Assembly: GCA_043818215.1 (NCBI GenBank)
Contig: JBDRGC010000127.1
Coordinates: forward strand, 12,832 to 76,831
DNA: 64,000 nucleotides
Direction: 5' to 3'
Source of the DNA: Chloroflexota bacterium
GTDB taxonomy: Bacteria > Chloroflexota > Anaerolineae > Anaerolineales > UBA11858
Below, piece by piece: positions 2,556-63,897 of this stretch. Numbering within the stretch: position 1 is the stretch's first letter; each line of letters starts with the position of its first letter. The position numbers and the translations under genes were made by a program. Under the pieces are notes generated by a model. It was given only the letters and a program-made list of their open reading frames with translations, did not search any database and had not been told where the DNA came from.

Positions 2556-2592
2556 GACGGGAGACGGAGGACGGGAGACGGAGAACGGAGGA
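2556..2592. repeat. heptamer tandem array (GACGGGA/GACGGAG)
   Basis: The tandem 7-nt units can be read directly, between the wzm stop and the next start. Confidence 0.8.
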
Positions 2593-2595
2593 TGG

Positions 2596-2952
2596 ATGAC
2601 TGAGACGTATAAATTTCAAAAGTTGCGTGTTTATCAGTTGGCATTGGATTATGTTGATGCTATTTACTCCCTGAGCAAGCAATTGCCCGAAACAGAAAAG
2701 TACAATCTTCGTTCACAGGTTGAGCGAGCGGCCACATCCATTGTGCTCAATATTGCCGAAGGTTCAGCTGGTCAAAGTGATGCGGAACAGAAACGCTTTC
2801 TTGGTTTCGCTCTGCGTTCTTATCTCGAAACCATCGCTTGCCTGGATTTGATTGAACGCCGAAAGTTTTTGCCAGCAGACGTGTTATCTCACGTTCGGAA
2901 TATAGGACACCAACTATTTATCAAACTGCAAGCATTCCGAAACAGCCTGTGA
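2596..2952 (+). CDS. four-helix-bundle protein (23S rRNA intervening-sequence protein family)
   Basis: YKFQKLRVYQLALDY...NIAEGSAGQS...FLGFALRSYLE matches the conserved pattern of this family. ATG at 2596. Confidence 0.75.
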   Translation: MTETYKFQKLRVYQLALDYVDAIYSLSKQLPETEKYNLRSQVERAATSIVLNIAEGSAGQSDAEQKRFLGFALRSYLETIACLDLIERRKFLPADVLSHVRNIGHQLFIKLQAFRNSL

Positions 2953-3141
2953 AAATGAAATGGGTGCGTTTCATTTGATTTGGAGTAAGACATTTCGCCG
3001 GTTGAGTAGCTGCGTTCTTTGCAGCGTATCGAAACCAGCACTGATTTCGACCAGCTCAATCGACGCTTCCAACCGATTTGAAACACACCCAAATGAAATC
3101 AACATCCCCGTTCTCCGTCCTCTGTCCCCCGTCCAAAAGCC

Positions 3142-4422
3142 ATGTCAAACCTCACCATCCGCGTAACCAACCTCGGTAAACAATACCGCATCGGCGTAGC
3201 CCCGGAAAAATACCGCACGCTGCGTGATTCGCTCGTGGATGCGGTCACCTGGCCGGCACGCCGCCTACGCCAGAGACTGCCCGCTGGCGGTGATGGCGCC
3301 GACACGATATGGGCTTTGCGCAATATATCTTTCGAAGTCGAACATGGACAGGTGCTGGGTGTGATTGGCCGCAATGGGGCCGGGAAGAGCACCCTGCTCA
3401 AGATTCTCTCCCGGGTGACGGAACCCTCCGAGGGGGAGGTGGAAATCCGCGGGCGGGTCGGTGCCCTCCTCGAGGTGGGCACCGGATTCCATCCCGAATT
3501 GACCGGCCGCGAGAATATCTTCCTCAACGGCGCCATCCTGGGCATGAAGCGCACCGAGATCGAGCGCAAATTCGACGAAATTGTAGATTTCTCCGGCGTG
3601 GAGAAATTCATCGACACGCCTGTCAAGCGCTATTCCAGCGGGATGTATTTGCGTCTGGCCTTCGCCGTGGCCGCCCATTTGGAGCCGGAAATTCTGGTAG
3701 TGGATGAAGTCCTGGCGGTGGGTGATGCCGAGTTCCAGCGCAAATGCCTGGGCAAGATGAGTGATGTGGCTCAAGAAGGCCGCACCGTGCTATTCGTCAG
3801 CCACAATATGTCGGCCATCCTGCGGCTCACTCAGGAATCTATTGTGTTGGACAAGGGCCAGATGGTTTACCGTGCCCCCACGGCTGAGGCAGTGGATTAC
3901 TATATGTCATCGGGCTTTTCGGAAACTGGAGAGCGCACCTGGGCCGCTGAGGAGATTCCCGCCAGCGCAGCCCCGTTCAGCCCCATAGCTTTGCGGGTTC
4001 TGGATTCCCGCGGGCAAGTCGTGGACATAGTGCGTTCAACTGAGCCGTTGTCACTGGAAGTCGAATACCAACTCGACCAGCCCATCACAGGGTTGCGCGT
4101 CGGGCTGTACCTGATAAATATGCGCGGCGAGTATGTTTTCACATCCTTCGATACCGATGAGCCAACCCAGTACGAGAGCTATGCCGTGCGCCCGGCCGGA
4201 CATTACATCAGCCGTTGCAGCCTCCCCACGGACATGCTCAACGAGGGGGGCTACGTTGTGGGCCTCAACGCCAGTTCGTACCGCGTCAAAAGCTATTTCC
4301 AGGATGAACACGCCCTGGCCTTCAACGTAGACGGCATGGGCGCGCCCGGCAAGCAGTGGGCCGAAACTCGCTTGGGCCTGGTGCGTCCGCGTTTGGATTG
4401 GGTGATTGAGAATATGAGGTAA
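3142..4422 (+). CDS. wzt: polysaccharide ABC exporter ATP-binding protein (Wzt/TagH-like) with C-terminal extra domain
   Basis: Walker A GRNGAGKST, signature YSSGM, Walker B ILVVDE. An additional C-terminal domain of about 180 aa is present, as in O-antigen Wzt proteins. Confidence 0.85.
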   Translation: MSNLTIRVTNLGKQYRIGVAPEKYRTLRDSLVDAVTWPARRLRQRLPAGGDGADTIWALRNISFEVEHGQVLGVIGRNGAGKSTLLKILSRVTEPSEGEVEIRGRVGALLEVGTGFHPELTGRENIFLNGAILGMKRTEIERKFDEIVDFSGVEKFIDTPVKRYSSGMYLRLAFAVAAHLEPEILVVDEVLAVGDAEFQRKCLGKMSDVAQEGRTVLFVSHNMSAILRLTQESIVLDKGQMVYRAPTAEAVDYYMSSGFSETGERTWAAEEIPASAAPFSPIALRVLDSRGQVVDIVRSTEPLSLEVEYQLDQPITGLRVGLYLINMRGEYVFTSFDTDEPTQYESYAVRPAGHYISRCSLPTDMLNEGGYVVGLNASSYRVKSYFQDEHALAFNVDGMGAPGKQWAETRLGLVRPRLDWVIENMR

Positions 4423-4425
4423 ACC

Positions 4426-4498
4426 GGTATACAGAGTACACAGGGTATACAAAGTATGCAAAATATGCAAGTGGACACGCACAAATCCACTTGTATAC
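4426..4498. repeat. GTATACA-type heptamer words plus hairpin (stems 4468-4475 / 4486-4493)
   Basis: Degenerate 7-nt words are followed by the inverted repeat caagtgga...tccacttg, between convergent genes. This is a plausible bidirectional terminator. Confidence 0.6.
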
Positions 4499-4499
4499 T

Positions 4500-5066
4500 T
4501 TAGACTTGTTCCAGAATAAGCGACGCAAGGAATGGTACACGGATTTCACGGATCAGACGGATTCTTTTTCTTAATTTTATGCTTATATCCGTGTACAAAC
4601 AGTCAGCCGCTGTTATTGAGGAACAACTCTTTTGTTTACTTGTCCCCCCTCGTACAATTTTTAGAAACTCGTGAACCTTGACAATGGGAATCCCCCGGTA
4701 CTCCCCCAGTGAAAGAAGATGTTTGTCGCCGCTGATGATGAAGGACGCTCTCGCGGAGATTGCCGCAAGTATAACGATGTCGTCATCAGGATCAGCCGGT
4801 ACAAGCGTTTCTTCAGGGCTAGATACTGCAGTAAATAAAGAAGACAGTGCAGTTGCTTGACCAACCAGATAAGATATGGATACTCCCATTTCTTTGAGAC
4901 GGTGTTGGAATTTGGGATACGCAAGTACTCTGCTCAGTTCGGCCAGAATCGGTGCTGTCACACAAATTTCCACATCACCATGTTTGGTAAACTTAAGAAA
5001 TTTATAAGGTAGTCCTCGCCAAAGCAAAGCGGAAACCCAGACGTTTGTATCAATTACAACCCGCAC
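4500..5066 (-). CDS. PIN-domain toxin (putative ribonuclease) with unusually long C-terminal tail
   Basis: The N-terminus MRVVIDTNVWVSALL and later SGDKHLL are typical of the PIN_3 family of toxins. The last ~50 aa look like read-through. Confidence 0.7.
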   Translation of the reverse strand: MRVVIDTNVWVSALLWRGLPYKFLKFTKHGDVEICVTAPILAELSRVLAYPKFQHRLKEMGVSISYLVGQATALSSLFTAVSSPEETLVPADPDDDIVILAAISARASFIISGDKHLLSLGEYRGIPIVKVHEFLKIVRGGTSKQKSCSSITAADCLYTDISIKLRKRIRLIREIRVPFLASLILEQV

Positions 5067-5069
5067 GAT

Positions 5070-5315
5070 TTATTCCCCCTGACGCGTCTGGCGGCGCACT
5101 TCGTGAACGATTTCATTGATTTCTTCCATAGTCATCGGCTCACCCGGCGGCGATTTTTCAAGGACATCGAAAATCGAGACGGGTGTAATGCGTTTTAGAA
5201 GCAATGTGTCCCCCTCAAACCAGGTGTAGAACCGATCATCCGGCTGAAAACGTGTCGCGATTTCTTCGGGTAACTCTAGCGTTGTTGGTGAAGTTAGTGT
5301 CGCAAGTTCATTCAT
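5070..5315 (-). CDS. putative antitoxin of the PIN toxin
   Basis: 81-aa ORF from an internal ATG (CAT at 5313-5315), ending 4 nt upstream of the PIN start. Family not recognised. Confidence 0.4.
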   Translation of the reverse strand: MNELATLTSPTTLELPEEIATRFQPDDRFYTWFEGDTLLLKRITPVSIFDVLEKSPPGEPMTMEEINEIVHEVRRQTRQGE

Positions 5316-5493
5316 TGTAACGACCTCCGTCGATAAAATTTCGGATGACAACGTGATTTTTGACAAGTATACTACGCCGTGTGTTGAAACGCACGGCTGA
5401 TATCGGAAACCCGTTGAAAACGGATTGAGATCACCTGCCCGCAACTCGCGCCCAGCTACACTTCGGGTATCAGCCGCTGAATTCATTCATCGG

Positions 5494-5536
5494 CTTGCCT
5501 CTTGCCTCTTGCCTCTTGCCCCTTGCCCCTTGCCCC
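5494..5536. repeat. heptamer array (CTTGCCT/CTTGCCC)
   Basis: Six tandem 7-nt units lie immediately 5' of the ATG at 5537. Confidence 0.85.
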
Positions 5537-7132
5537 ATGGAAAACACGACACTCAAACACATCCTCGGTGACATCCCCCTCACCGCCGAACTTTACTGGC
5601 TTCTGCGGCAAACACATCTTCCCCCTGTGGGCGGCTACGATTTGAAGAGGTTGCAAAAAGCGCTCCCCGAATGGGTCGCGCAGGCTCAGGCCACAAAACG
5701 CGCTCAACCCGGCAAGCGCGTGCTGATATTCAGCATGCTGCGCTACTGGATCGAGCAAACCACAATGCTGGGTCTGGCCCTCAGCGCCCTGGGACATGAC
5801 GTGACCCTGGCTTATCTGCCTCACGGTCACTGGAAAAAGCATCTCAAACGTTTTGACCTGCGCCGCCAGAATCTGTATGTGCGTGATACCCTCGAACAGG
5901 TTGAACCCCTGCTGAAGACCATCTCCGTGCTGGAAATGCCGAAAGCCAGAGCGCTCTCCGCCGAGTTAGCATCGCAAATGGATGCCGCCGCCTACCGCGA
6001 CGTGCAGTACAGCCTCCTCCGCGAAGATGTCGAGCGGGATAGTGACTTGTACCGCCTGCGCACGGAGCGCAATCAGGCTCACGCCCGTTCAATGCTGGCC
6101 CGGATGCAGGAACACCGTCCCGACGTAGTCATTGTGCCCAACGGCAGCATCTTGGAATTCGGCATCACCTTCCGGGTGGCGCAATATTTGGGTATCCCCG
6201 TGATGACCTACGAATTCGGCGAGCAAAGCGAGCGGATGTGGCTGGCCCAAAACGCCGACGTGATGCAGCAGGATACCTCCGATTTGTGGACTGCCCGCGG
6301 CGAGATTCCTTTGACCGATACGGAGTGGGCGCGCGTCCGCGATTTTTTCGCCACCCGACAGGGAGGCGGCCTGTGGGAGAACTTTTCCCGCCATTGGCAG
6401 GGGACTCCCGCCCGTGGAGGCAAGCAAACCCGTGCGGAGTTGGGGCTGGATTCGCGACCTGTAGCATTAGTACCTGCCAACGTCCTCGGCGACAGCCTGA
6501 CCCTGGGGCGGCATCTCTTTAGCGGGAGCATGACCGGGTGGCTGGAGCGCACCATTGATTATTTCTCCGAGCGGACTGATGCTCAACTTGTGATTCGCGT
6601 TCACCCTGGCGAGCAGATCGGTTGGGGACCTTCGGTGTACGATATCTTGCGAGAGAAATTCCCTCAACTGCCTGAGCATATCCACCTGATGCCTGCTGAT
6701 GCGCAGGTCAACACCTACGATCTGGTCAACACCGCCGACTTCGGTTTGGTCTTCACCACCACCGTGGGCCTGGAAATGGCCATGAGCGGATTGCCGGTCA
6801 TCGTCACGGGGCAGACTCACTATCGGGGCAAGGGATTCACCCTCGACCCTGATTCGTGGACCGCCTACTTCGCGACCCTCGACCAATTGCTGGAATCCCC
6901 CACGGATCACTGCCCTTCCCGCCGGCAGGTCGAATCTGCCTGGACCTATGCTTACCGGTTCTTCTTCGATTATCCCCAGTCCTTCCCCTGGCATGTCCAG
7001 CACTTCTGGGAAGACGAGGCCAAATGGTCGCTGGCACGGGCCTTGTCGGATGAAGGTATGGCCTTGTTTGGTAAGACGTTCCAGTATCTGGTTGGTGAGC
7101 CGATAGACTGGGGAGCAGGAATCAGGGACTAG
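5537..7132 (+). CDS. large GT-B-like protein, capsule-polysaccharide-biosynthesis-like (function uncertain)
   Basis: 532 aa. The C-terminal half (LVIRVHPGE...DLVNTADFGLVFTTTVGLEMAMSGLPVIV) resembles the nucleotide-sugar-binding half of GT-B / capsule-synthesis proteins. The assignment is tentative. Confidence 0.4.
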   Translation: MENTTLKHILGDIPLTAELYWLLRQTHLPPVGGYDLKRLQKALPEWVAQAQATKRAQPGKRVLIFSMLRYWIEQTTMLGLALSALGHDVTLAYLPHGHWKKHLKRFDLRRQNLYVRDTLEQVEPLLKTISVLEMPKARALSAELASQMDAAAYRDVQYSLLREDVERDSDLYRLRTERNQAHARSMLARMQEHRPDVVIVPNGSILEFGITFRVAQYLGIPVMTYEFGEQSERMWLAQNADVMQQDTSDLWTARGEIPLTDTEWARVRDFFATRQGGGLWENFSRHWQGTPARGGKQTRAELGLDSRPVALVPANVLGDSLTLGRHLFSGSMTGWLERTIDYFSERTDAQLVIRVHPGEQIGWGPSVYDILREKFPQLPEHIHLMPADAQVNTYDLVNTADFGLVFTTTVGLEMAMSGLPVIVTGQTHYRGKGFTLDPDSWTAYFATLDQLLESPTDHCPSRRQVESAWTYAYRFFFDYPQSFPWHVQHFWEDEAKWSLARALSDEGMALFGKTFQYLVGEPIDWGAGIRD

Positions 7133-7188
7133 GAACCAGGGACTAATCACCTAGTCCCTAGCCCCTAATCCCTGGTCACTAGCCCCTA
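7115..7188. repeat. inverted heptamer arrays (CAGGGAC/TAGGAAC then CTAGTCC/CTAGCCC)
   Basis: The left and right arms are approximate reverse complements. The left arm overlaps the 3' end of the preceding CDS. Confidence 0.8.
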
Positions 7189-8076: not shown

Positions 8077-8286
8077 ATGTCTGTTCAAACCTTTACAGCG
8101 ATTATTCATCGCGAAGATGATTTGTACGTTGTCGAATGTCCCGAAGTGGGCACTGTCAGTCAAGGCTATTCGATTGAGGAAGCCGTGGCAAATATAAAAG
8201 AAGCCACTGAACTATACTTAGAGGAATTTCCAACTCCTGAAACTAAACGATCTCTGTTGACCACTTTCGAGGCAGCTTATGCCTAA
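8077..8286 (+). CDS. hicB: HicB-family antitoxin
   Basis: FTAIIHREDDLYVVECPEVGTVSQGYSIEEAVANIKEA is the UPF0150/HicB pattern. It overlaps the downstream hicA by 8 nt. Confidence 0.7.
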   Translation: MSVQTFTAIIHREDDLYVVECPEVGTVSQGYSIEEAVANIKEATELYLEEFPTPETKRSLLTTFEAAYA

Positions 8287-8506
8287 GTTGCGCAGAGTTT
8301 CGGGAAGGCAAGCTATTCGCGCATTAGAACACCTGGGATTTTTTCAAGTCAGGCAGCGCGGGAGTCATGTAATCCTCAAACAAAAAACATTTGAGAGCGA
8401 GCGAGGCTGTGTTGTGCCGCTTCACCGAGAATTGGCGATTGGTACATTGCGGGGCATTCTCAAACAGGCTGGCGTGACTCCAGAAGAATTCATGGACAAT
8501 CTCTAA
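8279..8506 (+). CDS. hicA: HicA-family mRNA interferase toxin
   Basis: The GRQAIRALEHLGF...QRGSHVILK pattern is that of YcfA/HicA. Confidence 0.75.
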   Translation: MPKLRRVSGRQAIRALEHLGFFQVRQRGSHVILKQKTFESERGCVVPLHRELAIGTLRGILKQAGVTPEEFMDNL

Positions 8507-9657: not shown

Positions 9658-10575
9658 ATGCGCATTCTTATCACCGGCGCCAGCGGCCTGCTGGGTATCA
9701 ATCTGGCCCTGGAAGCCGCCGGCCAGCACACCGTTTTCGGAGTGGTTAATAGCCGCGGACTGAAAACCGAGGCCTTTACCGTCCTGCAAGCGGACTTGCT
9801 GGAACCTGGCGCGGTGGAACGTGTTCTTGATGAGAGCCAGCCCGATTGGGTGATCCACTGCGCCGCCCTGGCCAACCTGGAAGCCTGCGAAAAGCATCCG
9901 GCGTTGGCCCGGGAATTGAATACCGAAGTCCCCCGAAATCTGGCAGCCCAATGTCGGAATGGCGGAGCGCGCTTGTTGCACGTCTCCACGGACGCGGTAT
10001 TCGATGGTAAGCGCGGCGGCTACACAGAAGATGATTCCCCCAATCCGCTGGGCGTCTACTCCCGAACCAAACTCGAAGCTGAACACGCCGTAGCCGAGGC
10101 TTACCCCGAGGCGATCATCGCCCGCGTCAATCTCTTCGGCTGGAGTCTGACCGGTAAACGCAGTCTGGCCGAGTTTTTCTTTTACAATTTGCAAGCGGGT
10201 AAAAATTTGATGGGCTTCACCGATGTTTATTTCTCCCCCCTGTTGGTGAACGATATTGCTCACATTTTCATCAAAATGCTGAAAAAGGGCTTAGGCGGCT
10301 TGTATCACGTTGTCAGCAGTGAGAGCTTGAGTAAATATGAATTTGGTGTCGCTATTGCCCGGAAGTTCGGACTCGATTCCGAGTTGATTGCCCCCAGGTC
10401 AGTTTCGGATGCCGGCCTCGAGGCTGTCCGCTCCCCCAACTTGACTCTCAAGGTTGATAAACTTATCCACGCTTTGGGCGAATCTCCCCCCGGAATATCC
10501 CCAGCTTTAGAACGCTTTTACACCCTTTATCAACAGGGTTATCCACAGTTTCTTGGTAGGTTGGTAGGTTGGTAG
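9658..10575 (+). CDS. SDR-type sugar reductase, RmlD (dTDP-4-dehydrorhamnose reductase)-like
   Basis: MRILITGASGLLG Rossmann start and YSRTKLEAE (YxxxK). Its size and layout match the RmlD substrate-binding family. The last codons run into the TTGGTAGG array. Confidence 0.65.
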   Translation: MRILITGASGLLGINLALEAAGQHTVFGVVNSRGLKTEAFTVLQADLLEPGAVERVLDESQPDWVIHCAALANLEACEKHPALARELNTEVPRNLAAQCRNGGARLLHVSTDAVFDGKRGGYTEDDSPNPLGVYSRTKLEAEHAVAEAYPEAIIARVNLFGWSLTGKRSLAEFFFYNLQAGKNLMGFTDVYFSPLLVNDIAHIFIKMLKKGLGGLYHVVSSESLSKYEFGVAIARKFGLDSELIAPRSVSDAGLEAVRSPNLTLKVDKLIHALGESPPGISPALERFYTLYQQGYPQFLGRLVGW

Positions 10576-10668
10576 ATTGGTAGGTTGGTAGGTTGGTAGG
10601 TTGGTAAATTGGATCACCAATTTACCAATTTACCAATCTACCAATTCCCAATTTCCCAATCTACCAAT
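10553..10668. repeat. octamer array with inverted arms (TTGGTAGG x~7 / CCAATTTA-CCAATCTA x~6)
   Basis: The arms flank the centre GGATCACC near 10612 and the right arm is the reverse complement of the left. A long imperfect hairpin is predicted. Confidence 0.9.
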
Positions 10669-10685: not shown

Positions 10686-10976
10686 TTAGCTTTCAGCGAT
10701 CTGATAAGTTGGCTTTCGCTGTAATTCCTGTAACTTCTCCTGTACCCATAGATTCAACAGGGTTTCGGCTGAAATACCCCGCTTCCTTGCTAAATCTGTG
10801 ATTTTTGATGACAGGGTAGATTCCACGGCAAAGTAAGTTTTACCGGATTGAATATCGATCTCGAATTCGACTTCGGGCATACCATCCAGGTAATCCCCCA
10901 TGTCTGTCTCATCAAAAAATGCTGCCATTTCATCAAGCGATTGGAATTTTGGAAGAGTCTTCCTATTTTCTGGCAT
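10686..10976 (-). CDS. brnA: BrnA-like antitoxin (copy 1)
   Basis: 96 aa, immediately downstream of the BrnT-like gene with a 14-nt overlap. The C-terminal ribbon-helix-helix-like segment is GISAETLLNLWVQEKL. Confidence 0.6.
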   Translation of the reverse strand: MPENRKTLPKFQSLDEMAAFFDETDMGDYLDGMPEVEFEIDIQSGKTYFAVESTLSSKITDLARKRGISAETLLNLWVQEKLQELQRKPTYQIAES

Positions 10977-11247
10977 AGCTTTTTCTCTCTTTGTTCGCCA
11001 TATTTCTGGCGCTCAAGATTAATGCCTGGCGGTTTATTTTATAGATGAACAAAACCGCCAGATACCTTCCTGCGTCCGTTTTCCCCAGCCCAATATATAC
11101 GTCTTCACCCGGACGTTCTCCTTTTTCCATAAAGCGGATTTTTGGTCTGTTTGTGAAGATCTCTTCTACCTCATAAATTTCAACCTGGTGCTTCACGGTC
11201 AGTTTGTTAACAACATCATGCAACCAAAAAAGCCCGGCAATCTTCAT
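10963..11247 (-). CDS. brnT: BrnT-like toxin (DUF497 ribonuclease, copy 1)
   Basis: The W..D..N..KL..KH.V...EVEE pattern, with RYL.V.F, is typical of DUF497. Internal ATG (CAT at 11245-11247). Confidence 0.7.
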   Translation of the reverse strand: MKIAGLFWLHDVVNKLTVKHQVEIYEVEEIFTNRPKIRFMEKGERPGEDVYIGLGKTDAGRYLAVLFIYKINRQALILSARNMANKERKSYARK

Positions 11248-11249
11248 AT

Positions 11250-11540: not shown

Positions 11541-11604
11541 ATCTTCTCTGTTCTGACCTTGTCATATTTCTCGCTGATACGACTAATGCAAGTTTATCTT
11601 TATT

Positions 11605-11811: not shown

Positions 11812-11835
11812 ATCCCAATTATACCCCACTTGATT

Positions 11836-15224: not shown

Positions 15225-15241
15225 CGCACCAGGAGACACTT

Positions 15242-48195: not shown

Positions 48196-48221
48196 AACGT
48201 GGTGCTACACATTTTCACGTT

Positions 48222-55863: not shown

Positions 55864-56057
55864 TCGAATCTTTCTTTGTTGCTGCCTAAAACCGCATTAC
55901 GGTAAAAGTGGCGCAATCAATTCTGGCCTGACCGCCGACCACCAACCGCAGGCCATACTTTCGGCTGCCTGGTTTTGGCCGTCTGCCTTCTCTTAACTCC
56001 CCCTCTCCCCAGGTTGGGAGAGGGGGAGAGGGGGACAGGGGGTGAGGGTTGCCCTCA

Positions 56058-56825: not shown

Positions 56826-56844
56826 ATCATTCCTCTCAAAAAAG

Positions 56845-56950
56845 TGAGACGTGACGCAGTCCCCGAAGCTTAGCGGAGTGGGAAACGTGATGGGTGAGTT
56901 CACTCTCCACGTTTCACGTTTTACGCATCACGTTTCACGCTTCACGCCTC
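56845..56950. repeat. 45-bp conserved element followed by inverted ACGTGAA/CACGTTT heptamer words
   Basis: 56845-56898 resembles 43358-43420. The words can be read directly between the two CoA-transferase genes. Confidence 0.75.
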
Positions 56951-57910
56951 AGGCACCATATCTCTAAGTTCTTGTAGCCGTTCCTTGCCGATCAAATCCA
57001 GATATTCCTGGTGGTCAGCGACCTTGTGGATATACTTGTCAAGATAGGCTTGCGTATCCTCCACGGTTTTAGAGGCCTCCACCCAGGCTTTGATTTGGGC
57101 CTCGTCCCGCTCGTAGATATAACACATCTCGCCGGGGTGCGACCCGAAGGGGGCATGTATTACCGCGTCCACCAGGTAATAGGGAATCACGGTGCGATCG
57201 GGCTGCGAGCGGATAAAATCGGTGTCCACGATTTCCTCGGCGCTGATGATCAGCCGCTTGGAAGCCCGCGACATCTCGAATGCGAATCCGCTGATGCCGT
57301 CGATTTGGGCGTTGCCGTATTTATCGGCCCGGTGGACGTGGATCAATCCCACGTCGAGGATCAAGGCCGGCAGCAGTGCAATCGGGTCGCCAGTGAAAGG
57401 ACACTCGACTACCTTGGCGGCGCTGTATTTGAGGGTGTCGGTGCCCAGCATGGAGCGGACGGGGATGAAGGGCACGCCCATTGCGGCGGCCTTGAATCGC
57501 CAGGCAATCCCGGCGTTGCTCCAATCGACGCATTTGACGCGCCCGCTTTCCACCTCCCGCCGCAGGCAGTTGGAGATGCCGTAAACCTCCAATCCAATAT
57601 AGGTGTGGTCGAGTGCCTTGACCAGCCCGGCCCCCAGCAGGATGTCCAACTCGTAGACTCCCTGCCCGGCCACGCGCAGGTCTTTTTTCCCCTGGCGGAC
57701 GATCTCGTTGACCAGCGATTGCGGGCAGCGCACCGTGCCGTACAGTTCCGTGCCGATATAATCGCCATCGTGGACGAAGCGGCTGACGGCCTCGGCTTCG
57801 GTCATCATTTTGTCCACCAACCCCCTGGGCTTGTTGCGATTATGCTCGCGGAAGGCATTGACATCGGGCGGTTGAAGCATTTCGCCGATGCCGGATTGGA
57901 GTACTTTCAT
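56942..57910 (-). CDS. CoA-transferase subunit A
   Basis: EAVSRFVHDGDYIG...AGQGVYELD...VHVHRADKYGN is the pattern of family I CoA-transferase alpha subunits. ATG at 57910. Confidence 0.8.
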   Translation of the reverse strand: MKVLQSGIGEMLQPPDVNAFREHNRNKPRGLVDKMMTEAEAVSRFVHDGDYIGTELYGTVRCPQSLVNEIVRQGKKDLRVAGQGVYELDILLGAGLVKALDHTYIGLEVYGISNCLRREVESGRVKCVDWSNAGIAWRFKAAAMGVPFIPVRSMLGTDTLKYSAAKVVECPFTGDPIALLPALILDVGLIHVHRADKYGNAQIDGISGFAFEMSRASKRLIISAEEIVDTDFIRSQPDRTVIPYYLVDAVIHAPFGSHPGEMCYIYERDEAQIKAWVEASKTVEDTQAYLDKYIHKVADHQEYLDLIGKERLQELRDMVPEA

Positions 57911-57924: not shown

Positions 57925-57998
57925 GTTGGTAATTGGTAAATTGGTGATTGGTAGATTGGTAAATTGGTAATTGGTAAACTGGTGCTTGGTGGATTGGT
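57925..57998. repeat. octamer/heptamer array (TGGTAAAT/TGGTAATT/TGGTAGAT)
   Basis: Read directly, upstream (minus sense) of CoA-transferase A. Confidence 0.85.
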
Positions 57999-58183
57999 AT
58001 GCTCAGTATACTCCGCACGGTCAGTGTAAAGTCAATGTCATTAATTTTATCCATCGGCGGATTATAGCGCAGTATCCCCTTGCGGGATGAAACCGCCTGG
58101 AACATGTCAGAAAACCTTATTTTGCTCCTGTCGGATCCGTCCCTCAAGGGGATGCTGCGCGATGATCCGACAGACACCAACCC

Positions 58184-60661
58184 CTAACTTAATAACCTTG
58201 AGCATAAAGTGATCTCCAACTCACCAATCCGCTCGAACTCCACGGGGATACGATACCGGCCCTGACCGGCAGATTGGCAAGCAACCGGTTTCTGGTTTAA
58301 TACGACCTTGTCAGGGGGGCGCGGTAGAGCGACCTCTATCTCGCCCCGCGCTTTTCCCGGCCTCTCGAGGCGAACCCGGAGATTTGAGGGTGATTCTACC
58401 CATTGAGTGACTTCCAGCCCCTGAGAGATATGCAGGTCGCTCCCCAGGTACACCGCCCCCATCCGCCGCAGGGAAAGCAGCCGCACCCCGTGGGCCGGGA
58501 TTCCCCTCAGGGTCAGCACCCCTCCCCCAATCCGGGCAGTGGTTCCGTCCCAAAAGGAACGGGCAAAGTAATCCCCGTCGGGGTCGAGGTCGAATTTCTC
58601 CAAAGGCAGCCTCGCACCCGCAGGTTTATCATCCCAATTGAAAATTGCCAGCAAATGCCACACCCCGGTGACGTTTTCCAAATCCAATCGCAGCAGGCGC
58701 GGGGTGGCGGAGTCGAACCAATCGAGGACACGGGGTGACTCGCCAATCAGCGGTAGCAACTGCCCGGCGATGCGCAGACGATCCGGGGGCAGCTTGGGCA
58801 GGTCGTCGGAGAGCAGCACAGGGCCGCCGGTGAGGGCAATGGCCGTGGCAAGAGATCGAACTTCGTCCAGGGTGAGGTCTGAATCGGGGCGCAGCAACAG
58901 GCAGTCGGGGTCGTTGATCCACCAGCGGCGGTGGAATGGGGCGCGTGTGAGTATATTTTGGATGGCGTTGCGCACTGCGGGCATAGCCGGTTCATCTCGG
59001 AAACTGCCTTTGTGACCATGAAAGGCGGGCATCCAGTCGGGGGCCACATCGGCGCCGATACGCATGACGTCCACCAATCCGATGGCCGACCCCATCGGGC
59101 AGCCGCAGCCCAGCAGGGTGGTATCCGGCCCCGCGGCCTCCCGCAGTGCTTCCAGGCCGGTGCGCAAAACCTGGGCGCGGGTCTTGGTGCGGTCACGGTA
59201 GCGGCCGGGGAGCGCGGCGGCGTAGAGAAAATCGAGCTTGAGGTAGGAGTAGCCCCACTCGTGGGCTGCGGTGCGCACGACTTCGCGGGCATAATCGAGG
59301 GCCGGGGGGTGGGTCAGGTCGAGGGCGCGGTCGAATGCATTCCACACAAAACCGGCGTTGACTGGCAGCCGCCAGCGGTTGCGCAACAGCCAATCGGGAT
59401 GCTGGCGGGCCAGTTTCGATTTTGGGTGTACGATGAAAGGCGCCAGCCACAGGCCGGGCGTGAATCCCGCCGCTCGGATTTCGCCGGCCAGAGGAGCTAC
59501 CCCATCGGGGAAGCCGGGGGCGAAATCGAACCAATCGCCGATTTGAGCCTCGAAGCCATCGTCGATTTGGAAAAGCTGGAGGGGGATGGCCGGCCGCATC
59601 TCCGCAGCAGCCTGTAGGTTAGCGCGCATTTTGTCGGCGGTGATGTCTTGGAAGAAGTGATACCAGGAGCACCACCCTGCTGAAGACTGAAGATTGAAGA
59701 TTGAAGACTGAAGACCGAAGACTGAAGACTGAAGACTGAAGACTGAAGACTGGAGCCTATGTTCACGCGCTACAGCATTTAAATATGGGCCGAGGGGATC
59801 GGGGGCGTCGATGTTCACAAACTGGACAACGGCCCAGTCGGTACTCATTTGCGCGCCGGGGTCGAGGCGGGCATGATCGCCGTTGGCCCACAAACTCAGG
59901 GCCGGGTACACAGAGTCGCAGCGGGATTCGAGGGAGCCGAAGTGCTGCTTTTGGGAGAGGAAGCCCGCTAAGATACCGGTGCGGTGTTGGCGGTCTCCCA
60001 GCACGCCGAACATATCGCTGGCGAAGTGGCCGGCTTTTTTAGGGCGCGGCGTCCCGGCGTTGTACCACATCGGCGCGGCGATGAATCCCAGGCGTGTATT
60101 CCGGTAACTATCACCGGGGCCGAAAGCTCCCGTGTGAGACCAGGATTGCCAGCCGTTGGAGAAGAAAGCTATTTCCCCCAAGTCGGGGTGGGGGCGAATA
60201 GCCCCGTATCCGCTGGGAGGTGTATTTTTACGCAGGGAGACATATCCCGGTTCGGGCAGCAAAGTCTTCTTCGGGAAGAAGCCGGCTCGCAGAAGCACCA
60301 GGCGGTCGATTTCTACGGCGTGTTCCCCCTGATTTTCGATGCTCAGTTTCCACAGGAAAAGGGGGTGGTCTTCGGGTAAAGAAAATGTGAATGTATACCG
60401 CAATCCGTTTTTATCAGGGCCGATGGTGACGTGAAGCTGTGTCAGTGTTCCGTGGAGTGAGGGCATATTTTCGGGGCCGCGTATTTGGGGATTATGCCAT
60501 TGCTCCAAAGCCTGAAAGCGCTGCCGCCCGCGGCGATAGTGGACGCGCATCCACACATCTTCGAGAAAAGGGGACTCGCGGTTTGTCCCGTGCAAGCTCC
60601 AAGTAGCTTTGTCAGGGTTGATAATGAATTGGAGGTGGGGGGAAGTAAGTATAAAGGTCAT
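58184..60661 (-). CDS. GH36-family alpha-galactosidase (melibiase-like) with in-frame array insertion
   Basis: GWCSWYHF, QIDDGFE, YLKLDF, GCGCP and WINDPDC motifs. ATG at 60661 chosen, which removes the overlap with the next gene. Confidence 0.8.
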   Translation of the reverse strand: MTFILTSPHLQFIINPDKATWSLHGTNRESPFLEDVWMRVHYRRGRQRFQALEQWHNPQIRGPENMPSLHGTLTQLHVTIGPDKNGLRYTFTFSLPEDHPLFLWKLSIENQGEHAVEIDRLVLLRAGFFPKKTLLPEPGYVSLRKNTPPSGYGAIRPHPDLGEIAFFSNGWQSWSHTGAFGPGDSYRNTRLGFIAAPMWYNAGTPRPKKAGHFASDMFGVLGDRQHRTGILAGFLSQKQHFGSLESRCDSVYPALSLWANGDHARLDPGAQMSTDWAVVQFVNIDAPDPLGPYLNAVAREHRLQSSVFSLQSSVFGLQSSIFNLQSSAGWCSWYHFFQDITADKMRANLQAAAEMRPAIPLQLFQIDDGFEAQIGDWFDFAPGFPDGVAPLAGEIRAAGFTPGLWLAPFIVHPKSKLARQHPDWLLRNRWRLPVNAGFVWNAFDRALDLTHPPALDYAREVVRTAAHEWGYSYLKLDFLYAAALPGRYRDRTKTRAQVLRTGLEALREAAGPDTTLLGCGCPMGSAIGLVDVMRIGADVAPDWMPAFHGHKGSFRDEPAMPAVRNAIQNILTRAPFHRRWWINDPDCLLLRPDSDLTLDEVRSLATAIALTGGPVLLSDDLPKLPPDRLRIAGQLLPLIGESPRVLDWFDSATPRLLRLDLENVTGVWHLLAIFNWDDKPAGARLPLEKFDLDPDGDYFARSFWDGTTARIGGGVLTLRGIPAHGVRLLSLRRMGAVYLGSDLHISQGLEVTQWVESPSNLRVRLERPGKARGEIEVALPRPPDKVVLNQKPVACQSAGQGRYRIPVEFERIGELEITLCSRLLS
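59681..59754. repeat. in-CDS heptamer array (TGAAGAC on + strand, ~10 units)
   Basis: It encodes LQSSVFSLQSSVFGLQSSIFNLQSS directly before the catalytic-barrel motif GWCSWY. Confidence 0.9.
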
Positions 60662-60710
60662 GGGTTGGGGATGATCGCCGACGGACGACGGGTGACGGGC
60701 GACCGACGAC

Positions 60711-60811
60711 AAAGGTGCGACGCACTTACAATCAGTGCTCAAAAGTTGCGATTTGGCTTGATTTGACGCTGGTTGAGTGCATTGAAATGGTATAAAGTGC
60801 GTCGCACCTTC
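60711..60811. other. pair of inverted copies of the AGGTGCGACGCACTT motif separated by about 64 nt
   Basis: aaaggtgcgacgcactta (60711-60728) and taaagtgcgtcgcaccttc (60793-60811). This is the same core as at 24374-24413 and 33171-33190. Confidence 0.8.
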
Positions 60812-60857
60812 TGCCGATTGATATTGGCGGTCAGCGGTCAGCGGTCGGCAGTCGCTA

Positions 60858-61898
60858 TCAGCGGAGAACTTCACCCGTTTGTGCCAGCACCTCGAGTACT
60901 TTGTCGGCGATGGCGACGGTGGTGGAGCCGAGACCGCAGGCAGGGGTGATCAGGCTGCGAGACTCGAATTCAACGGGGTTGATGGACACTCCTCGGGCGG
61001 CAGCCTTATCGCAAATCAACGCCAACCCCGCGCGCAGTTGGTCGGCCAATCCCTGAGGGGTGACGGAGTGGATGTCTTCGTTGTTGGGCACGATGCCCCA
61101 GGCAACGATGCCGCCGCGGTCGAGGAATTTTCGCAGTTCCTCGGGATAGAGGGCCAGGTTGTCCAGGTATCCGTAGGCATCCAGGTTGAGAATGTCCAAC
61201 TGAGTAGCCAGCAGCACCGACCAATCGGTGTTGGCGCAGCAGTGTACACCGGTCAGAGCGTCCTCGGCGTGGATGGCTTCGAAGACTTCGTCCATCATGG
61301 CGATAGCTTGCTCGCGGCTCAGGCTGATAAAGGCCGAACCGAAGGATGCCATGTAGGGTTCGTCAACGAACATGATGATATTGGGGCGCACACTGCGGAG
61401 CTGCTGGATTTGCCAGCGAGCGTTCAGGGCCATATTTTTGACGATGGTGTCGGCCAGAAGTTCGTTGTAGAGCACGGAGCGCAGGTCTTGATCGACGACA
61501 GTGAGGCCAAAGCTGATGGGGCCGGTGACCTGTCCTTTGACCCATTCGCCGGGGGTGGCACGCAACGTGTCCAGCATGGCGTAGAATCCGGCGGCGTACT
61601 CCGGGGTGAGACCAAAAGCATCGAAGTCTTCGTCCAGGTATTTCATGTAGAAAGTTTCTAATTCGGGGGTGAAGTCGCCGGTGGTATCGAAGGTGATCTT
61701 CTGGTTGACTTCATCCAGCACGGTGCGGGGCAGCGCGGCGCTATACTGCGTGTACATATTCTCGCGGAAACCGAGGCGCACCATCTGCGGCCAGGTAGGG
61801 ATGTCGATGGCAGCGGCGATGCGCTGGCAGACTTCGACGGCGTCGGTATGCGGAAAGCTGCCGATGAGGGTTGTCAGGAAATTGGGTCGGAAGGTCAT
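60858..61898 (-). CDS. cobalamin-independent methionine-synthase-like (MetE C-terminal / URO-D superfamily) protein
   Basis: N-terminal TTLIGSFPHT and later HCCANTDW (metal ligands) resemble MetE-like methyltransferases. The substrate is unknown. Confidence 0.55.
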   Translation of the reverse strand: MTFRPNFLTTLIGSFPHTDAVEVCQRIAAAIDIPTWPQMVRLGFRENMYTQYSAALPRTVLDEVNQKITFDTTGDFTPELETFYMKYLDEDFDAFGLTPEYAAGFYAMLDTLRATPGEWVKGQVTGPISFGLTVVDQDLRSVLYNELLADTIVKNMALNARWQIQQLRSVRPNIIMFVDEPYMASFGSAFISLSREQAIAMMDEVFEAIHAEDALTGVHCCANTDWSVLLATQLDILNLDAYGYLDNLALYPEELRKFLDRGGIVAWGIVPNNEDIHSVTPQGLADQLRAGLALICDKAAARGVSINPVEFESRSLITPACGLGSTTVAIADKVLEVLAQTGEVLR

Positions 61899-62020
61899 AA
61901 AACTGCTCTCTCGTGGTATAATATTTCGGCGGGTGGCCAGTGGCGCAGCTATCCTTGACCGGACGCTCTCTCCCTGGCAGCAAGGCCCAACGCCGGCACA
62001 AAAGGGCCTCCCCGCTGGAA

Positions 62021-62503
62021 TTATTGGCCCGTGATCGGTATCAGCAGATCACGGGCTGTTATTATTCTATCAGCCCTGGCTATGCCTCTATATATTGCCA
62101 GGGCTTTTTTATATGCCGGCGATTTCTTTCCAACATATCCAAACGTGATATTTTCGGCGTCGTAATCAGGGTTGTCTCGCCATAGCAATGCCAACAGCAT
62201 GTTTTTGATGCTTTTCTCATGTCCAGTGTATTCTTTATCTATGACAACCCGTTCCCCTGGGGGTAATTCCCTGACCAGGTAATATAACGCCACAGCAAAG
62301 AGGCGCAGATGAACTCGTACACGCCGGCGTCCCCTGGGATGCGGGCGTAAAGCACGAATTGCCTCTCTCTTTTCCCTGGCAGGGATGCGGATCGTGTATT
62401 CTCTGCTGTTGCTCAAAGCCAGGGCGGTGTCGCCTGTGCTCTCGATCTTGTTACTTTGGTCTATTTGATAGGACAAACGGTCTGCCTCCCATCCTGTGCG
62501 CAT
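62021..62503 (-). CDS. hypothetical protein
   Basis: A 160-aa ORF, relatively AT-rich and basic, with no recognisable motifs. Confidence 0.3.
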   Translation of the reverse strand: MRTGWEADRLSYQIDQSNKIESTGDTALALSNSREYTIRIPAREKREAIRALRPHPRGRRRVRVHLRLFAVALYYLVRELPPGERVVIDKEYTGHEKSIKNMLLALLWRDNPDYDAENITFGYVGKKSPAYKKALAIYRGIARADRIITARDLLIPITGQ

Positions 62504-62512
62504 CCGACCTTT

Positions 62513-63775
62513 CTAGCAATGCAGCCTTCGCGCGGCCACAAACGACAACCCCCTCTCCGTCAACGCCCAGGCGGTCTTGTTGAGGGCATCGAATTTATCG
62601 AGGAAGTTTAGCTGTAAGGCGTCCCAATGGCCGGTTTCGATGATCTCATCTTTGGCCCGGAAATAGTCGAGGATGTCGGAGGGATGCTCGCGGGTCTGGT
62701 CGATCTCGGGGTCGCCGCCTTCGTGCTTGGCAGAGATATTGGCAACATGGCCGGCGATTTCGAGCAATTCGTCGCGGCGGTTGTAGGGCTGGATGACGAT
62801 GCTCTTGTACGTTTCGACAATATGGTGTTCGAAGCGCACAACATCTTCAAAGCCCCAGTCTTTGCGGAATTGGGCGGTGATCTCCATGGTTTCGTTGTTG
62901 ATCGAGTTGGCCCAGTTGAAGCCAATCAGCGGGGAGGTGCCGTCATCGCGGGCAAAGAGCTTGGCCCCAAGCAGAGTCCACAAAGCAGCGTAGGGATTGT
63001 CGTTACCCATATAGACCGAAATCTTGAATTCGATGTCCACACCAATGCGGTGAAGCATATAACTCAGCAGCACGGTGCCGGGGTTGATATTGAGCACCTG
63101 ATTGACGCCGTATTCGGTGTAATAATACAGGAATTCGTCGAGCCATTGAATGGCATGCCCATTGGGTTGACCCACACCGCCGAAGTAGCCAGTGATAGTT
63201 TCCGGGCCGCCGAGGTGGATATTGGAACCATCGGTGCCCTTGGTATCGAGGGTTTCCACGTAACTGGCTCCAACGATCTGCATGGCGGCAGCAAAAGCTG
63301 CCAGGTCGCCGTCGGCCTCCTGCTCTTTCATATTGCGGACGCGAATGAAGCGGCCTGGCATGAGCAAGCCTTCTGCAATGGCACGTTTGGCAATTTCGAT
63401 AAGATAAGGGAAGAATTGGCAGGCGCTGATCTCCAATGTGACTGCAAAATCGTCGGCAAAGGTCATCGTATCGGCTTTATCGCCGAGGACTTTGCGGCGA
63501 TACTCGTCCACGCTGATGAAGGCTCCCTTGTCGCGCTGCTCGGCCAGCCAGTCAAGGTCAGCGAGGTATTCGGGCTTGATGGCCTTCACACAGGCGAGCA
63601 GGGCAGACATTTCACGAGCTGCTTTGGCTTTAGCGTTGATCTCCTCGGGAGTGCCGTATTTGGCGACCACATCGAGAAAATCATTGATCACACGCGTATC
63701 GGGGTTTAGCAAGACGGCGTTGATGTCGTCGAGGCGGGAGGGGGGAATTTGTAGTAGTTTACGTAGGTCTGTCAT
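62513..63775 (-). CDS. conserved-looking hypothetical protein (420 aa), family not recognised
   Basis: A long ORF with a good coding pattern. The opposite-strand ORF 62627..63709 is judged a shadow. Confidence 0.4.
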   Translation of the reverse strand: MTDLRKLLQIPPSRLDDINAVLLNPDTRVINDFLDVVAKYGTPEEINAKAKAAREMSALLACVKAIKPEYLADLDWLAEQRDKGAFISVDEYRRKVLGDKADTMTFADDFAVTLEISACQFFPYLIEIAKRAIAEGLLMPGRFIRVRNMKEQEADGDLAAFAAAMQIVGASYVETLDTKGTDGSNIHLGGPETITGYFGGVGQPNGHAIQWLDEFLYYYTEYGVNQVLNINPGTVLLSYMLHRIGVDIEFKISVYMGNDNPYAALWTLLGAKLFARDDGTSPLIGFNWANSINNETMEITAQFRKDWGFEDVVRFEHHIVETYKSIVIQPYNRRDELLEIAGHVANISAKHEGGDPEIDQTREHPSDILDYFRAKDEIIETGHWDALQLNFLDKFDALNKTAWALTERGLSFVAARRLHC

Positions 63776-63796
63776 GGGTGGTCTCCTTTAGGTCAA

Positions 63797-63897
63797 GTGG
63801 CTAGGGACTAGGGGCTAGGGATCAGGTACTAGCCCTTATCCCTGGTTTCCTATTTTCCTAGTCCCTAGTTCCTAGTTCCTAGTTTCCTAATCACTAG
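63797..63897. repeat. inverted heptamer arrays (CTAGGGA/CTAGGGG then TTCCTAG)
   Basis: Read directly, between two minus-strand genes. Confidence 0.85.

Follow-up and report, generated by a model that had tools for sequence, protein, structure and literature searches.

Paired 7- and 8-nt tandem repeat arrays between and within the genes of a polysaccharide locus from a probable Anaerolineae-type Chloroflexota

A 64-kb stretch of contig JBDRGC010000127.1 (the window; all positions count from its first letter) raises a question about the space around its genes: why are words of 7 or 8 nt repeated in tandem in so many of its gaps, commonly as two inverted arms, and are these arrays an artifact of assembly, a regulatory device, or a product of mutation? 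Our best reading is that they are long simple-sequence repeats (LSSRs) that have multiplied within a single sub-lineage of Anaerolineae-type Chloroflexota. We show that they are confined to tolerated space, which comprises the interval that opens at a stop codon and stops short of the following ribosome-binding site or start codon, together with in-frame linkers and loops of proteins.

Tandem Repeats Finder (TRF) returned 113 rows for the window, which merged into 69 arrays. In 57 of these the smallest period is 7 nt (43 arrays) or 8 nt (14 arrays), and the 57 together cover 3.4 kb. Windows simulated with a third-order Markov model gave 8 to 13 TRF rows, with 1 to 6 of period 7 or 8, so that the 57 arrays show what characterizes LSSRs, a unit of 5 to 11 nt in tandem runs longer than chance. 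Exact tandems of at least three copies occurred at k = 7 (7 loci) and k = 8 (10 loci) and were absent from the window at k = 5, 6, and 9 to 12, while TRF commonly reported higher-order periods of 15 (7+8), 21, 23 (8+8+7), 35, and 47. The mix of 7- and 8-mers described in the original prediction, an earlier reading of the letters alone, is thereby borne out, and the arrays it named were all recovered (at 10553-10668, 15034-15225, 21376-21585, 37930-38321, 39074-39247, and 40685-40787). The recurring word families it listed also appear in a cross-gap matrix; most words are nonetheless specific to one gap.

On a curated gene map with 41 intergenic gaps of at least 20 nt, 28 gaps (68%) bear arrays and 28% of gap bases lie inside them. 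Occupancy is thus high, although the earlier statement that nearly every gap is filled was too strong. Arrays are absent where genes abut at 21.6-27 kb, and two gaps that looked empty contain small genes. Array density is ∼250 bp/kb in gaps versus 14-26 bp/kb in genes, and this 10- to 18-fold enrichment is the intergenic preference that the proposed check, run here on the window, was meant to reveal. Nor is the phenomenon limited to the operon-like locus on the + strand, since the − strand genes at 52-64 kb also carry arrays.

Neighboring arrays form about 20 candidate pairs. An arm is complementary to its own partner at a mean of 17.3 of 21 positions, compared with 12.2 of 21 against the arms of other gaps, a difference that none of 20,000 permutations attained, and RNA folding z scores were between −4 and −14 in 16 of the 19 pairs scored. 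The strongest fold was that of 37930-38321 (−171.7 kcal/mol, z −14.2), and folds computed for DNA agreed with those for RNA. The claim that a forward arm is followed by its approximate reverse complement therefore held in both the pairing and the folding analysis, with unconvincing complementarity for the pairs beginning at 33506, 43330, and 45503. The period is equal in both arms of any pair; arm lengths are often unequal (130 versus 45, 66 versus 131, 122 versus 262, and 212 versus 33 nt).

The arms also follow a consistent order. The purine-richer arm is 5′ and the pyrimidine-richer arm 3′ in 19 of 20 window pairs, the pair at 34255-34351 being the only one of reversed polarity, and the same order is seen in 5 of 6 complementary pairs from other species. 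Because this order is identical on either strand, it is a property of the element rather than of the strand. The first arm begins at or across the upstream stop codon, which the repeated word often includes (TTGGTAGG, CAGTAAAT, GCGTGAA, and AGGGACTAGG), and the second arm ends 0 to 25 nt before the next start. The 1204 nt of second arms contain no Shine-Dalgarno-like motif, compared with 4.4 per 100 nt in first arms, and start-like triplets number 1.2 versus 4.8 per 100 nt. Stop codons do not set the purine arms apart, as we had considered, because stop density is alike in the two (5.5 versus 5.9 per 100 nt). Solo arrays were pyrimidine-rich on their assigned sense strand in all 15 tabulated cases, the sense strand in divergent gaps being that of the + strand gene.

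Arrays are found within intact open reading frames (ORFs) as well, where at least seven proteins contain in-frame array-coded segments and several proteins have array-coded C-terminal tails; these coding arrays had gone unnoticed in the original description of an intergenic feature. Those listed in Table 1 fall in places such as the linker of a GT4 glycosyltransferase, the junction of the N- and C-terminal domains of a Gfo/Idh/MocA oxidoreductase, and the region just before a conserved motif of an alpha-galactosidase-like protein. Two paralogous cytidylyltransferases (20476-21405 and 37119-37931) are each affected, one internally and one at its N terminus. In the SDR gene, a Pfam Pentapeptide_2 match (E value of 1.6e-5) coincides with the 15-nt (7+8) array at 33506-33717; it arises from the nucleotide repeat and does not mark a true pentapeptide-repeat domain. 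That the same arrays occur in frame within coding sequences argues against a function dedicated to gaps and for a process of mutation that selection then filters.

An assembly artifact was one way in which the original prediction could have failed. Exact-protein look-ups retrieved contigs 99.5-100% identical to the window from two metagenome-assembled genomes (MAGs; GCA_018812425.1 and GCA_018822265.1) and from the Logan assembly of SRR2540949, and no record for the proteins at 41918-43330 and 39268-40674. These contigs reproduce the arrays beginning at 5494, 7117, 10553, 11836, 12976, 13571, 15988, 16583, 28060, 34255, 35878, 37066, 46654, 48283, 56016, 56899, and 57926, the 15034-15225 pair, and the whole second arm at 21455-21585. 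The longest array fully spanned is ∼190 nt (the 192-nt pair at 15034-15225), and the spanned arrays were recovered base for base or nearly so. Short-read contigs do stop in the longest arrays (at 21.4, 33.5, and 38.0 kb) and copy numbers vary among assemblies, so that the exact copy numbers of long arrays are uncertain. Given that three independent assemblies reproduce every spanned array up to this length and that homologous arrays occupy the same sites in related species, we regard an artifactual origin as virtually discounted.

The same contigs differ from the window in array length by 7 nt at 46669, 39 nt at 37988, and 105 nt at 28603, and by indels of 1 to 13 nt in the SDR array, which adjoins a contig end. 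Outside arrays, the sole indel in the compared contigs is a 9-nt in-frame insertion at 23482. It is thus chiefly within arrays that near-identical strains differ in length. The 7-nt and 105-nt (15 units) differences are whole-unit changes of the kind that characterizes LSSRs between strains, and the 39-nt difference lies in an array of mixed 7- and 8-nt units; short-read repeat collapse may account for the larger ones. In contig L140 (L numbers denote comparison contigs and loci), three consecutive CTTGCCT units (5500, 5507, and 5514) carry a T-to-C difference at the same unit position, which suggests unit homogenization or contig-end noise.

Two sister-MAG contigs switch to unrelated gene contexts exactly at repeats: L141 within an array (its position 5767, window 28675) and L054 within an array-bearing element (its position 3088, window 46601). 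One of the new contexts holds ATP synthase genes and a ligase fragment and the other a BPL_LplA_LipB gene. These junctions represent either recombination at arrays or chimeric short-read assembly.

Comparison with related genomes bears on the host and origin of the arrays. The best relatives of the Sat/CysC protein are in Chloroflexota, Anaerolineae, and Anaerolineales MAGs (65-90% identity); the best syntenic ones are Anaerolineales MAGs with 80-90% amino acid identity, and most of the closest share the downstream SDR gene. We infer from these matches a class-level placement of the host among Anaerolineae-type Chloroflexota. A cyanobacterial host was considered and is rejected on the same conserved synteny.

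In 11 relatives the SDR next to Sat/CysC is uninterrupted (DPKF-DP-xSxxxHS-GAFED). At this site the L006 segment is slightly longer and includes a short array with about three repeats of the unit. Short purine-then-pyrimidine versions occupy the equivalent codon position in L009 (five units of the CAGGGAA type, then four of the TCCCCGA type) and in L005 (four GGGAGCAG units, then units of the CCTGAT type), and the window has 212 + 33 nt, or 78 extra residues (GSGNQ... LTPNP...), with the insert in frame in all four. The insert of the alpha-galactosidase-like gene contains no units in L080, 2 in L057, and about 4 in the window, so that orthologous inserts at both sites grow stepwise by units. 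The CoA-transferase genes provide an intergenic counterpart. The stop of subunit A overlaps the start of subunit B (ATGA; GAGAAATGACC) in about 70 metagenome relatives, whereas the window and L057, whose subunit A is 93% identical to that of the window, have an inserted segment of 116 to 128 nt at this junction. It consists of a GCGTG-type purine arm holding the A stop (GCGTGAA ×7.6 at 56899-56951 in the window), a pyrimidine arm (the weaker one in the window), a TTTTTT run, and a new Shine-Dalgarno sequence; the motif CTTTTTTGAGAGGAATG at its 3′ end has no second occurrence in the window.

Array density is likewise uneven. The window has ∼0.9 arrays per kb, L005, L009, and L057 have 0.9-1.1, and L104 and L129 have 0.46-0.85, compared with 0-0.2 for the majority of the other Anaerolineae loci, long-read contigs included. 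Contigs of the same species also have arrays in parts outside the window. Judged from sequence comparison, the arrays are derived insertions or expansions that are missing from most relatives.

Several tests addressed regulatory or RNA function. Three counts of terminator-like sites (20, 14, and 22) were close to expectation (21.8, 19.9, and 22.3), and none coincided with an array hairpin except for a small site at 56846-56863 in the CoA-transferase A-B insert. The arrays also do not have the form of intrinsic terminators, a short G+C-rich stem-loop directly followed by a U-run, and the suggestion that they insulate or terminate operons thus fails in its canonical form. Selection on an RNA structure left no sign either: the arms fold strongly, but there was no consistent folding advantage of the sense over the antisense strand (6 pairs favor + and 12 favor −) and thus no G-U signature, and across four copies of a 256-bp element that carries an array hairpin we counted no compensatory changes and 5 pair-breaking ones. 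Scanning both strands of the 64 kb with Rfam 15 covariance models gave no match at the gathering score, a tRNA scan of the window found nothing, and sigma-70 promoter-like sites were only mildly above chance, at 40-60 kb. The arrays look more like slippage products of one lineage than like an established regulatory device.

Three other candidates were set aside. G-quadruplexes do not serve as a general explanation, since on inspection GGG runs are present in some words only. Iterated target-site duplication by a transposon is unsupported as a source of the 7- and 8-nt units, the insertion sequence in the window being unrelated to arrays. The recurring words do not represent copied elements, because self-BLAST found shared flanks for one element and two local duplications only.

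We consider it probable that the arrays result from a lineage-specific, slippage-driven expansion of 7- and 8-nt words wherever these are tolerated. Replication slippage would amplify a short local word; in gaps the seed would be a short palindrome, so that both arms become arrays, and these would then expand largely independently, yielding unequal arms such as those of 130 and 45 or 122 and 262 nt, which hairpin-templated strand switching may occasionally re-symmetrize. Selection would act as a filter that keeps the start-side arm pyrimidine-rich and free of Shine-Dalgarno-like and start-like motifs, its complement therefore being the purine-rich arm at the upstream stop codon, and that restricts intragenic arrays to changes in multiples of 3 nt. 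A self-pairing insert would loop itself out, so that the stop and the next start remain close. Should the arrays influence the processing or stability of mRNA, translational coupling, or Rho access, such an effect would follow from their presence and is not a demonstrated purpose. Several points weigh against this explanation. Simple slippage alone does not explain complementary pairs or uniform polarity, and we infer rather than observe slippage as the cause, the palindromic seeds, and the avoidance of ribosome-binding-site mimics. The A-B hairpin is kept in the window and L057 despite changed sequence, which could reflect selection for structure, and array presence and word family persist between species ∼7% apart in CoA-transferase A protein, so that the arrays are not purely ephemeral. 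The sample comprises 64 kb and short contigs of this organism. The arms might instead be functional RNA hairpins within polycistronic transcripts, an account that we consider unlikely. They could be intercistronic processing or stabilizer sites (RNase III substrates, or 3′-exonuclease barriers like repetitive extragenic palindromes [REP] and bacterial interspersed mosaic elements [BIME]) or could couple translation, with a terminating ribosome melting the hairpin base and freeing the next start, and the solo arrays, being rich in C and poor in G, could load Rho at sites that a purine arm masks. Folding as strong as z −4 to −14 and −172 kcal/mol speaks for it, as do the lack of Shine-Dalgarno-like motifs in second arms, the A-B hairpin maintained in two species while its sequence changed, and the complementary arms around a 23S_rRNA_IVP gene, which recall rRNA intervening sequences excised by RNase III. 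The geometry fits as well: with a stop codon at its 5′ base and a start codon at its 3′ base, the hairpin could be opened there by the ribosome that terminates, right beside the following start. Against such hairpins stand the lack of consistent extra stability of the sense strand and of a G-U signature, the pair-breaking changes without compensation, the often very unequal arms, the identical arrays within coding sequences, the relatives with overlapping genes that function without arrays, and the lack of a canonical terminator signature or Rfam match.

Slippage could also have been put to use, with the arrays serving as contingency or recombination loci for surface-polysaccharide variation, in which 7- or 8-nt steps (not a multiple of 3) switch or tune genes and shared words promote cassette exchange. 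Simple-sequence repeats are present both inside ORFs of polysaccharide genes and in their 5′ regions, many of them in or beside glycosyltransferase, sugar-modifying, and capsule- or O-antigen-type genes; strain length polymorphism is limited to arrays except for the one 9-nt indel; two MAG contigs change context exactly at arrays, at 46.6 kb and 28675; and a 69-bp array-containing direct repeat surrounds a toxin-antitoxin cassette. We nevertheless find this decidedly unlikely, since the intragenic differences that could be checked, of 105 nt (Gfo/Idh/MocA) and 45 nt (alpha-galactosidase-like), keep frame, genes without a surface role (CoA-transferase and alpha-galactosidase-like) have arrays around them just as much, the contig junctions may be chimeric short-read assemblies, and ectopic recombination is disfavored by words that differ from gap to gap. 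Miniature mobile elements resembling miniature inverted-repeat transposable elements or REPINs (REP doublets forming hairpins), inserted and then diverged, would account for the dispersal of the 256-bp array-hairpin element (2 copies in the window and 3 in L054, 85-93% identity), for word families that recur at several loci, and for an A-B insert that brought its own T-run and Shine-Dalgarno sequence. Non-array flanks, though, are shared in self-BLAST by that element and two local duplications only, most words are gap-specific and orthologous inserts grow unit by unit, and Pfam scans of ∼60 window ORFs found no REP-associated tyrosine transposase (RAYT) or IS200-type transposase, the sole transposase being that of a DDE_Tnp_1 insertion sequence, which makes such an origin very improbable. 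Finally, paired arrays might be selected operon punctuation, that is, self-looping and fast-evolving spacers, which in addition make surface polysaccharides phase variable through unit slippage. The purine arm holding the stop and the mimic-free pyrimidine arm abutting the next start could then allow a terminating ribosome to melt the base of the hairpin and be handed over to the next cistron, the arms could double as RNase III or Rho control points, and slipping arrays inside and before glycosyltransferase and sugar-modifying genes could provide the variation; we rate this combination as quite unlikely. Slippage-driven expansion into tolerated space remains the explanation that we prefer.

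Related systems place the arrays within a known class of phenomena. The original prediction likened them to the short tandemly repeated repetitive (STRR) sequences of heterocystous cyanobacteria, an apt analogy in that both are 7-nt tandem words, mainly intergenic, with many words per genome and whole-unit length polymorphism. They are not STRR sequences in the strict sense, because the host is not a cyanobacterium. The classical words, which we take to be CCCCAGT (STRR1), TTGGTCA (STRR2), and CAACAGT (STRR3), do not occur even twice in tandem in the window. The window further differs in phylum, in that a quarter of its arrays are 8-mers, in its uniform purine-to-pyrimidine polarity and frequent in-frame coding inserts, and in paired arms that are the rule rather than an example. 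Inverted arms as such are not beyond what has been described, contrary to the earlier suggestion: the P6b stem-loop of the Nostoc trnL intron is built from two complementary heptamer motifs (PMC4476775), and the GGGAATC repeats of Xanthomonas occasionally form inverted pairs with stem-loop or cruciform potential (PMC4692102). Heptamer arrays also lie between the operon genes pecE and pecF of Nostoc (PMC4692102).

Among LSSRs with units of 5 to 11 nt, heptanucleotides are over-represented and polymerase slippage has been proposed, according to the summaries of Mrazek et al. 2007 in PMC4679880 and PMC4692102, and 22 satellites of Chloroflexus aurantiacus derive from (GATAGRA)n (PMC6749651). Our arrays resemble LSSRs, as so summarized, in their over-represented 7-nt units, sporadic phylogenetic distribution, and proposed slippage; they differ from these and from the Chloroflexus satellites in having many words instead of one, a sharp 7/8 duality, hairpin pairing, and a local density of ∼0.9 arrays per kb. 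The Xanthomonas GGGAATC and Beggiatoaceae TAACTGA repeats, for which a role in translation was proposed (PMC4679880), are similarly intergenic heptamer arrays near start codons, but those genomes use essentially one word, and neither word is in tandem in the window. The abstract of PMC9879509 describes pervasive, recent, and fast-evolving tandem repeats of Borg elements, both between genes and in frame within them, where they add low-complexity and probably disordered protein segments as here; these are direct repeats on an archaeal extrachromosomal element, with no inverted arms described in that abstract. REP, BIME, and REPIN sequences are also intergenic hairpin repeats, often between co-directional or convergent genes, but share one genome-wide palindromic consensus and are mobilized by RAYTs (PMC3116915), whereas in the window words differ per gap, arms are tandem arrays, Pfam scans found no RAYT, and only the 256-bp element is dispersed with its flanks. 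A literature search found no paper linking Chloroflexi or Anaerolinea with such arrays. The class of phenomenon is therefore known, and what is new is the host lineage, the 7/8 duality, the pervasive paired arms of fixed polarity, and the splitting of overlapping genes and of conserved enzymes.

Table 1. Arrays and array-bearing elements of the window. In pairs, the first arm is given before the second; MFE, minimum free energy.
Positions	Strand	Feature	Relation to genes	Folding and recurrence
2556-2605		purine-rich arm GACGGAG/GACGGGA	5 nt past Wzm stop codon	partner of 3108-3134; 18/21 complementary, best partner in row
3108-3134		pyrimidine-rich arm CCGTCCT	ends 7 nt before Wzt start	
5494-5534		solo CTTGCCT ×6	divergent gap; ends 2 nt before capsule-synthesis-like gene start	
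7117-7188		pair AGGAACC/AGGGACT, CCTAGTC	first arm contains upstream stop TAG; second ends 2 nt before methyltransferase start	z −4.2; identical in L140
10553-10668		8-mer pair TTGGTAGG ×6.8, ACCAATTT ×6.8	RmlD-like stop TAG within first arm, so last 7 residues array-coded	DNA fold −35.1 kcal/mol, z −9.2; identical in L140
11836-11877		solo CCTAACTC ×5.4	divergent gap BrnT/NeuB	present in L052
12976-13057		pair CGTGAAA, TCACGCC	NeuB-GT4 gap; NeuB stop TGA inside first arm	z −7.5; identical in L052
13571-13635	+	CGCTCCC-family array	in frame in GT4 ORF; codes 20 residues of linker between the two Pfam domain matches	identical in L052, L053
15034-15225		8-mer pair GAGTCGGC ×16, TCGCTGAT ×5, arms unequal	stop TGA is first array unit	RNA MFE −120.5 kcal/mol, z −13.1; identical in two MAGs
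15988-16085		pair AGGAAAC/CAGGGACT, CCCTAAT	acetyltransferase stop TAG within first arm; second ends 7 nt before next ATG	identical in two MAGs
16583-16626	+	CCTAACC array	in frame in DUF4910/M28 ORF, between DUF2172 and M28 matches; encodes LTPNLLTPNPQTPN	identical in L052, L053
18206-18238		solo TCTCCCC	directly past HEPN stop	part of duplicated MNT-HEPN segment
20484-20516		solo TCTCCCC	past second HEPN stop; overlaps first codons of cytidylyltransferase 20476-21405	
20862-20918	+	near-perfect hairpin pair ATTGGAG, AATCTCA	in frame in cytidylyltransferase ORF 20476-21405; codes ∼18-residue insert relative to PDB 6oew_A	z −8.2
21376-21585		8-mer pair CAGTAAAT/CAGGAAAC ×8.5, ACTGATCT ×16.4	stop TAA within first arm; second ends 6 nt before next ATG	z −9.2; second arm 21455-21585 100% identical in L137; three short-read contigs break here
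28060-28170		pair AACCAGGA, CTGATCTA	sulfotransferase-Gfo/Idh/MocA gap	identical in L003
28581-28790	+	CCACGCC ×24 + CCAATCT ×5	in frame in Gfo/Idh/MocA ORF; codes 70 residues between N- and C-terminal domains	105 nt (35 aa) shorter in sister MAG
33506-33760	+	CAGGAAAC+CAGGGAT (15-nt period, 5 codons) ×13, CCCTAAC ×4.6	in frame in SDR ORF; splits SDR domain cleanly at Pfam profile position 85-92	
34255-34351		pair CAGTATT, CACTGAA	directly past SDR stop	
35878-35911		solo TCCAATC		part of 69-bp direct repeat of 37157-37225
37066-37190		solo TCCAATC ×18	contains ATG of cytidylyltransferase 37119-37931, so first ∼24 residues array-coded	present in L001, L002
37930-38321		largest hairpin, ATCAGTAG/ATCAGGA (122 nt), GGTTTCCT ×33 (262 nt)	stop TAG is first unit	both arms begin in L001, first arm differing by 39 nt
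39074-39247		8-mer pair TGGTAAAT/TGGGGAC, TACCAATC	upstream of histidine kinase gene	z −9.3
40685-40787		solo TCGCCAT ×14.7	histidine kinase-GT2 gap	
41797-41909		pair GATTGGA, AATCTCC	GT2 stop TAG in first arm; second ends 8 nt before next ATG	
43330-43521		arrays GTGGAGC, CTTGCCC, CCCGCCA	one gap	complementarity unconvincing, z +0.9
45503-45569		short arrays TGAAACG, CGCCACT		complementarity unconvincing, z +0.5
46591-46845		256-bp dispersed element with hairpin AATGGTA, CATTTAC (46654-46748)		
48219-48473		second copy of 256-bp element, hairpin 48283-48382		93% identical to first copy
56016-56048		solo GGGAGAGG on + strand, pyrimidine-rich on sense (−) strand	downstream of CoA-transferase B	
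56826-56956	−	inserted hairpin	between CoA-transferase A and B	
57926-57999		solo 8-mer array, sense-strand TTTACCAA	ends 9 nt before AGGAG-GTG start of CoA-transferase A	in L054, L055 with 1-2 substitutions
59680-59752	−	sense-strand TCTTCAG array	in frame in alpha-galactosidase-like ORF; codes LQSSVFS ×3.5 directly before conserved GWCSWYHFF motif	
60679-60864		two arms, GACCGCT and GTCGTCC families on − strand	upstream stop TGA in first arm	z −5.4; arms enclose inner 16-bp palindrome GGTGCGACGCAC
63801-63899		pair CTAGGGA, TTCCTAG	upstream of − strand gene 62513-63775	

Pfam scans of the window show a + strand polysaccharide-type cluster from 34 to ∼50.5 kb, with epimerases, a Wzm/Wzt ABC transporter, NeuB, GT4, GT2, and methyltransferase genes, two cytidylyltransferases, sulfotransferase, Gfo/Idh/MocA, Sat/CysC, and SDR genes, and Bac_transf, Polysacc_synt_2, FemAB, and GHL15 genes. 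Past the cluster come the DDE_Tnp_1 insertion sequence and then the − strand genes, which encode a type ISP restriction-modification protein, CoA-transferase A and B, the alpha-galactosidase-like protein, and three unknown products. The insertion sequence and a small ORF lie between the copies of a 114-nt direct repeat (50421-50534/52491-52604, 92% identical), one of which forms the 3′ end of gene 48735-50534.

At least 10 toxin-antitoxin-type modules are scattered among ∼40 kb of polysaccharide genes (1100-1621, 4500-5486, 8077-8506, 10686-11829, 17448-20479, 34530-36690, and 38349-39043), of the types MazF, PIN_3, HicAB (two), CopG/BrnT (two), MNT/HEPN (two), DUF433/DUF5615, DUF6883/DUF4926, and Phd/PIN. 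The DUF6883/DUF4926 module lies in a 1.2-kb segment bracketed by the 69-bp direct repeat (35878-35946/37157-37225, 93% identical), which comprises the end of the TCCAATC array and the first cytidylyltransferase codons and looks like an insertion with target duplication. A 1.26-kb segmental duplication (17053-18308/19331-20586, 77% identical) takes in MNT-HEPN together with the DUF4910 3′ end and the TCTCCCC array, and ORF 19400-19711 repeats the DUF4910 C terminus.

The 23S_rRNA_IVP gene (2623-2952), which encodes a four-helix bundle, occupies the Wzm-Wzt gap and is bracketed by complementary arms 502 nt apart; in rRNA intervening sequences, which RNase III excises, a stem encloses such ORFs. 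Copies of the ∼256-bp element flank the GHL15 gene and recur in L054 at 1301-1457, 2750-2971, and 3088-3340, and its second arm contains a promoter-like TTTACC-17-TATAAT. The palindromic element GGTGCGACGCAC forms three inverted pairs with its reverse complement (24377-24410, 33112-33188, and 60714-60808), for 6 matches versus 0.43 expected; each pair either closely precedes a gene start or surrounds a gene junction, and the one at 60.7 kb is nested between two array arms. Period-9 arrays, GTATACAAA ×4.9 (4427-4470) and AAATCAGTG ×3 (26938-26964), are found in gaps without 7- or 8-nt arrays.

These arrays extend STRR-like heptamer proliferation to Anaerolineae-type Chloroflexota and add an 8-nt class. 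They offer clear before-and-after cases, including a gene pair overlapped at ATGA that has been split by a hairpin and conserved enzymes with array-coded loops of 18 to 78 residues or more. The rule that a purine arm lies at the stop and a pyrimidine arm at the start can be tested, and it may stem from limits that translation places on the forms noncoding DNA can take. Because the arrays break short-read assemblies and may create chimeric contigs, they affect MAG quality and gene calls, the latter through N-terminal extensions, split genes, and a spurious Pentapeptide_2 match to Pfam. If any of the functional readings were true, an uncultured lineage would be using the arrays to punctuate operons or to vary phase in a new way.

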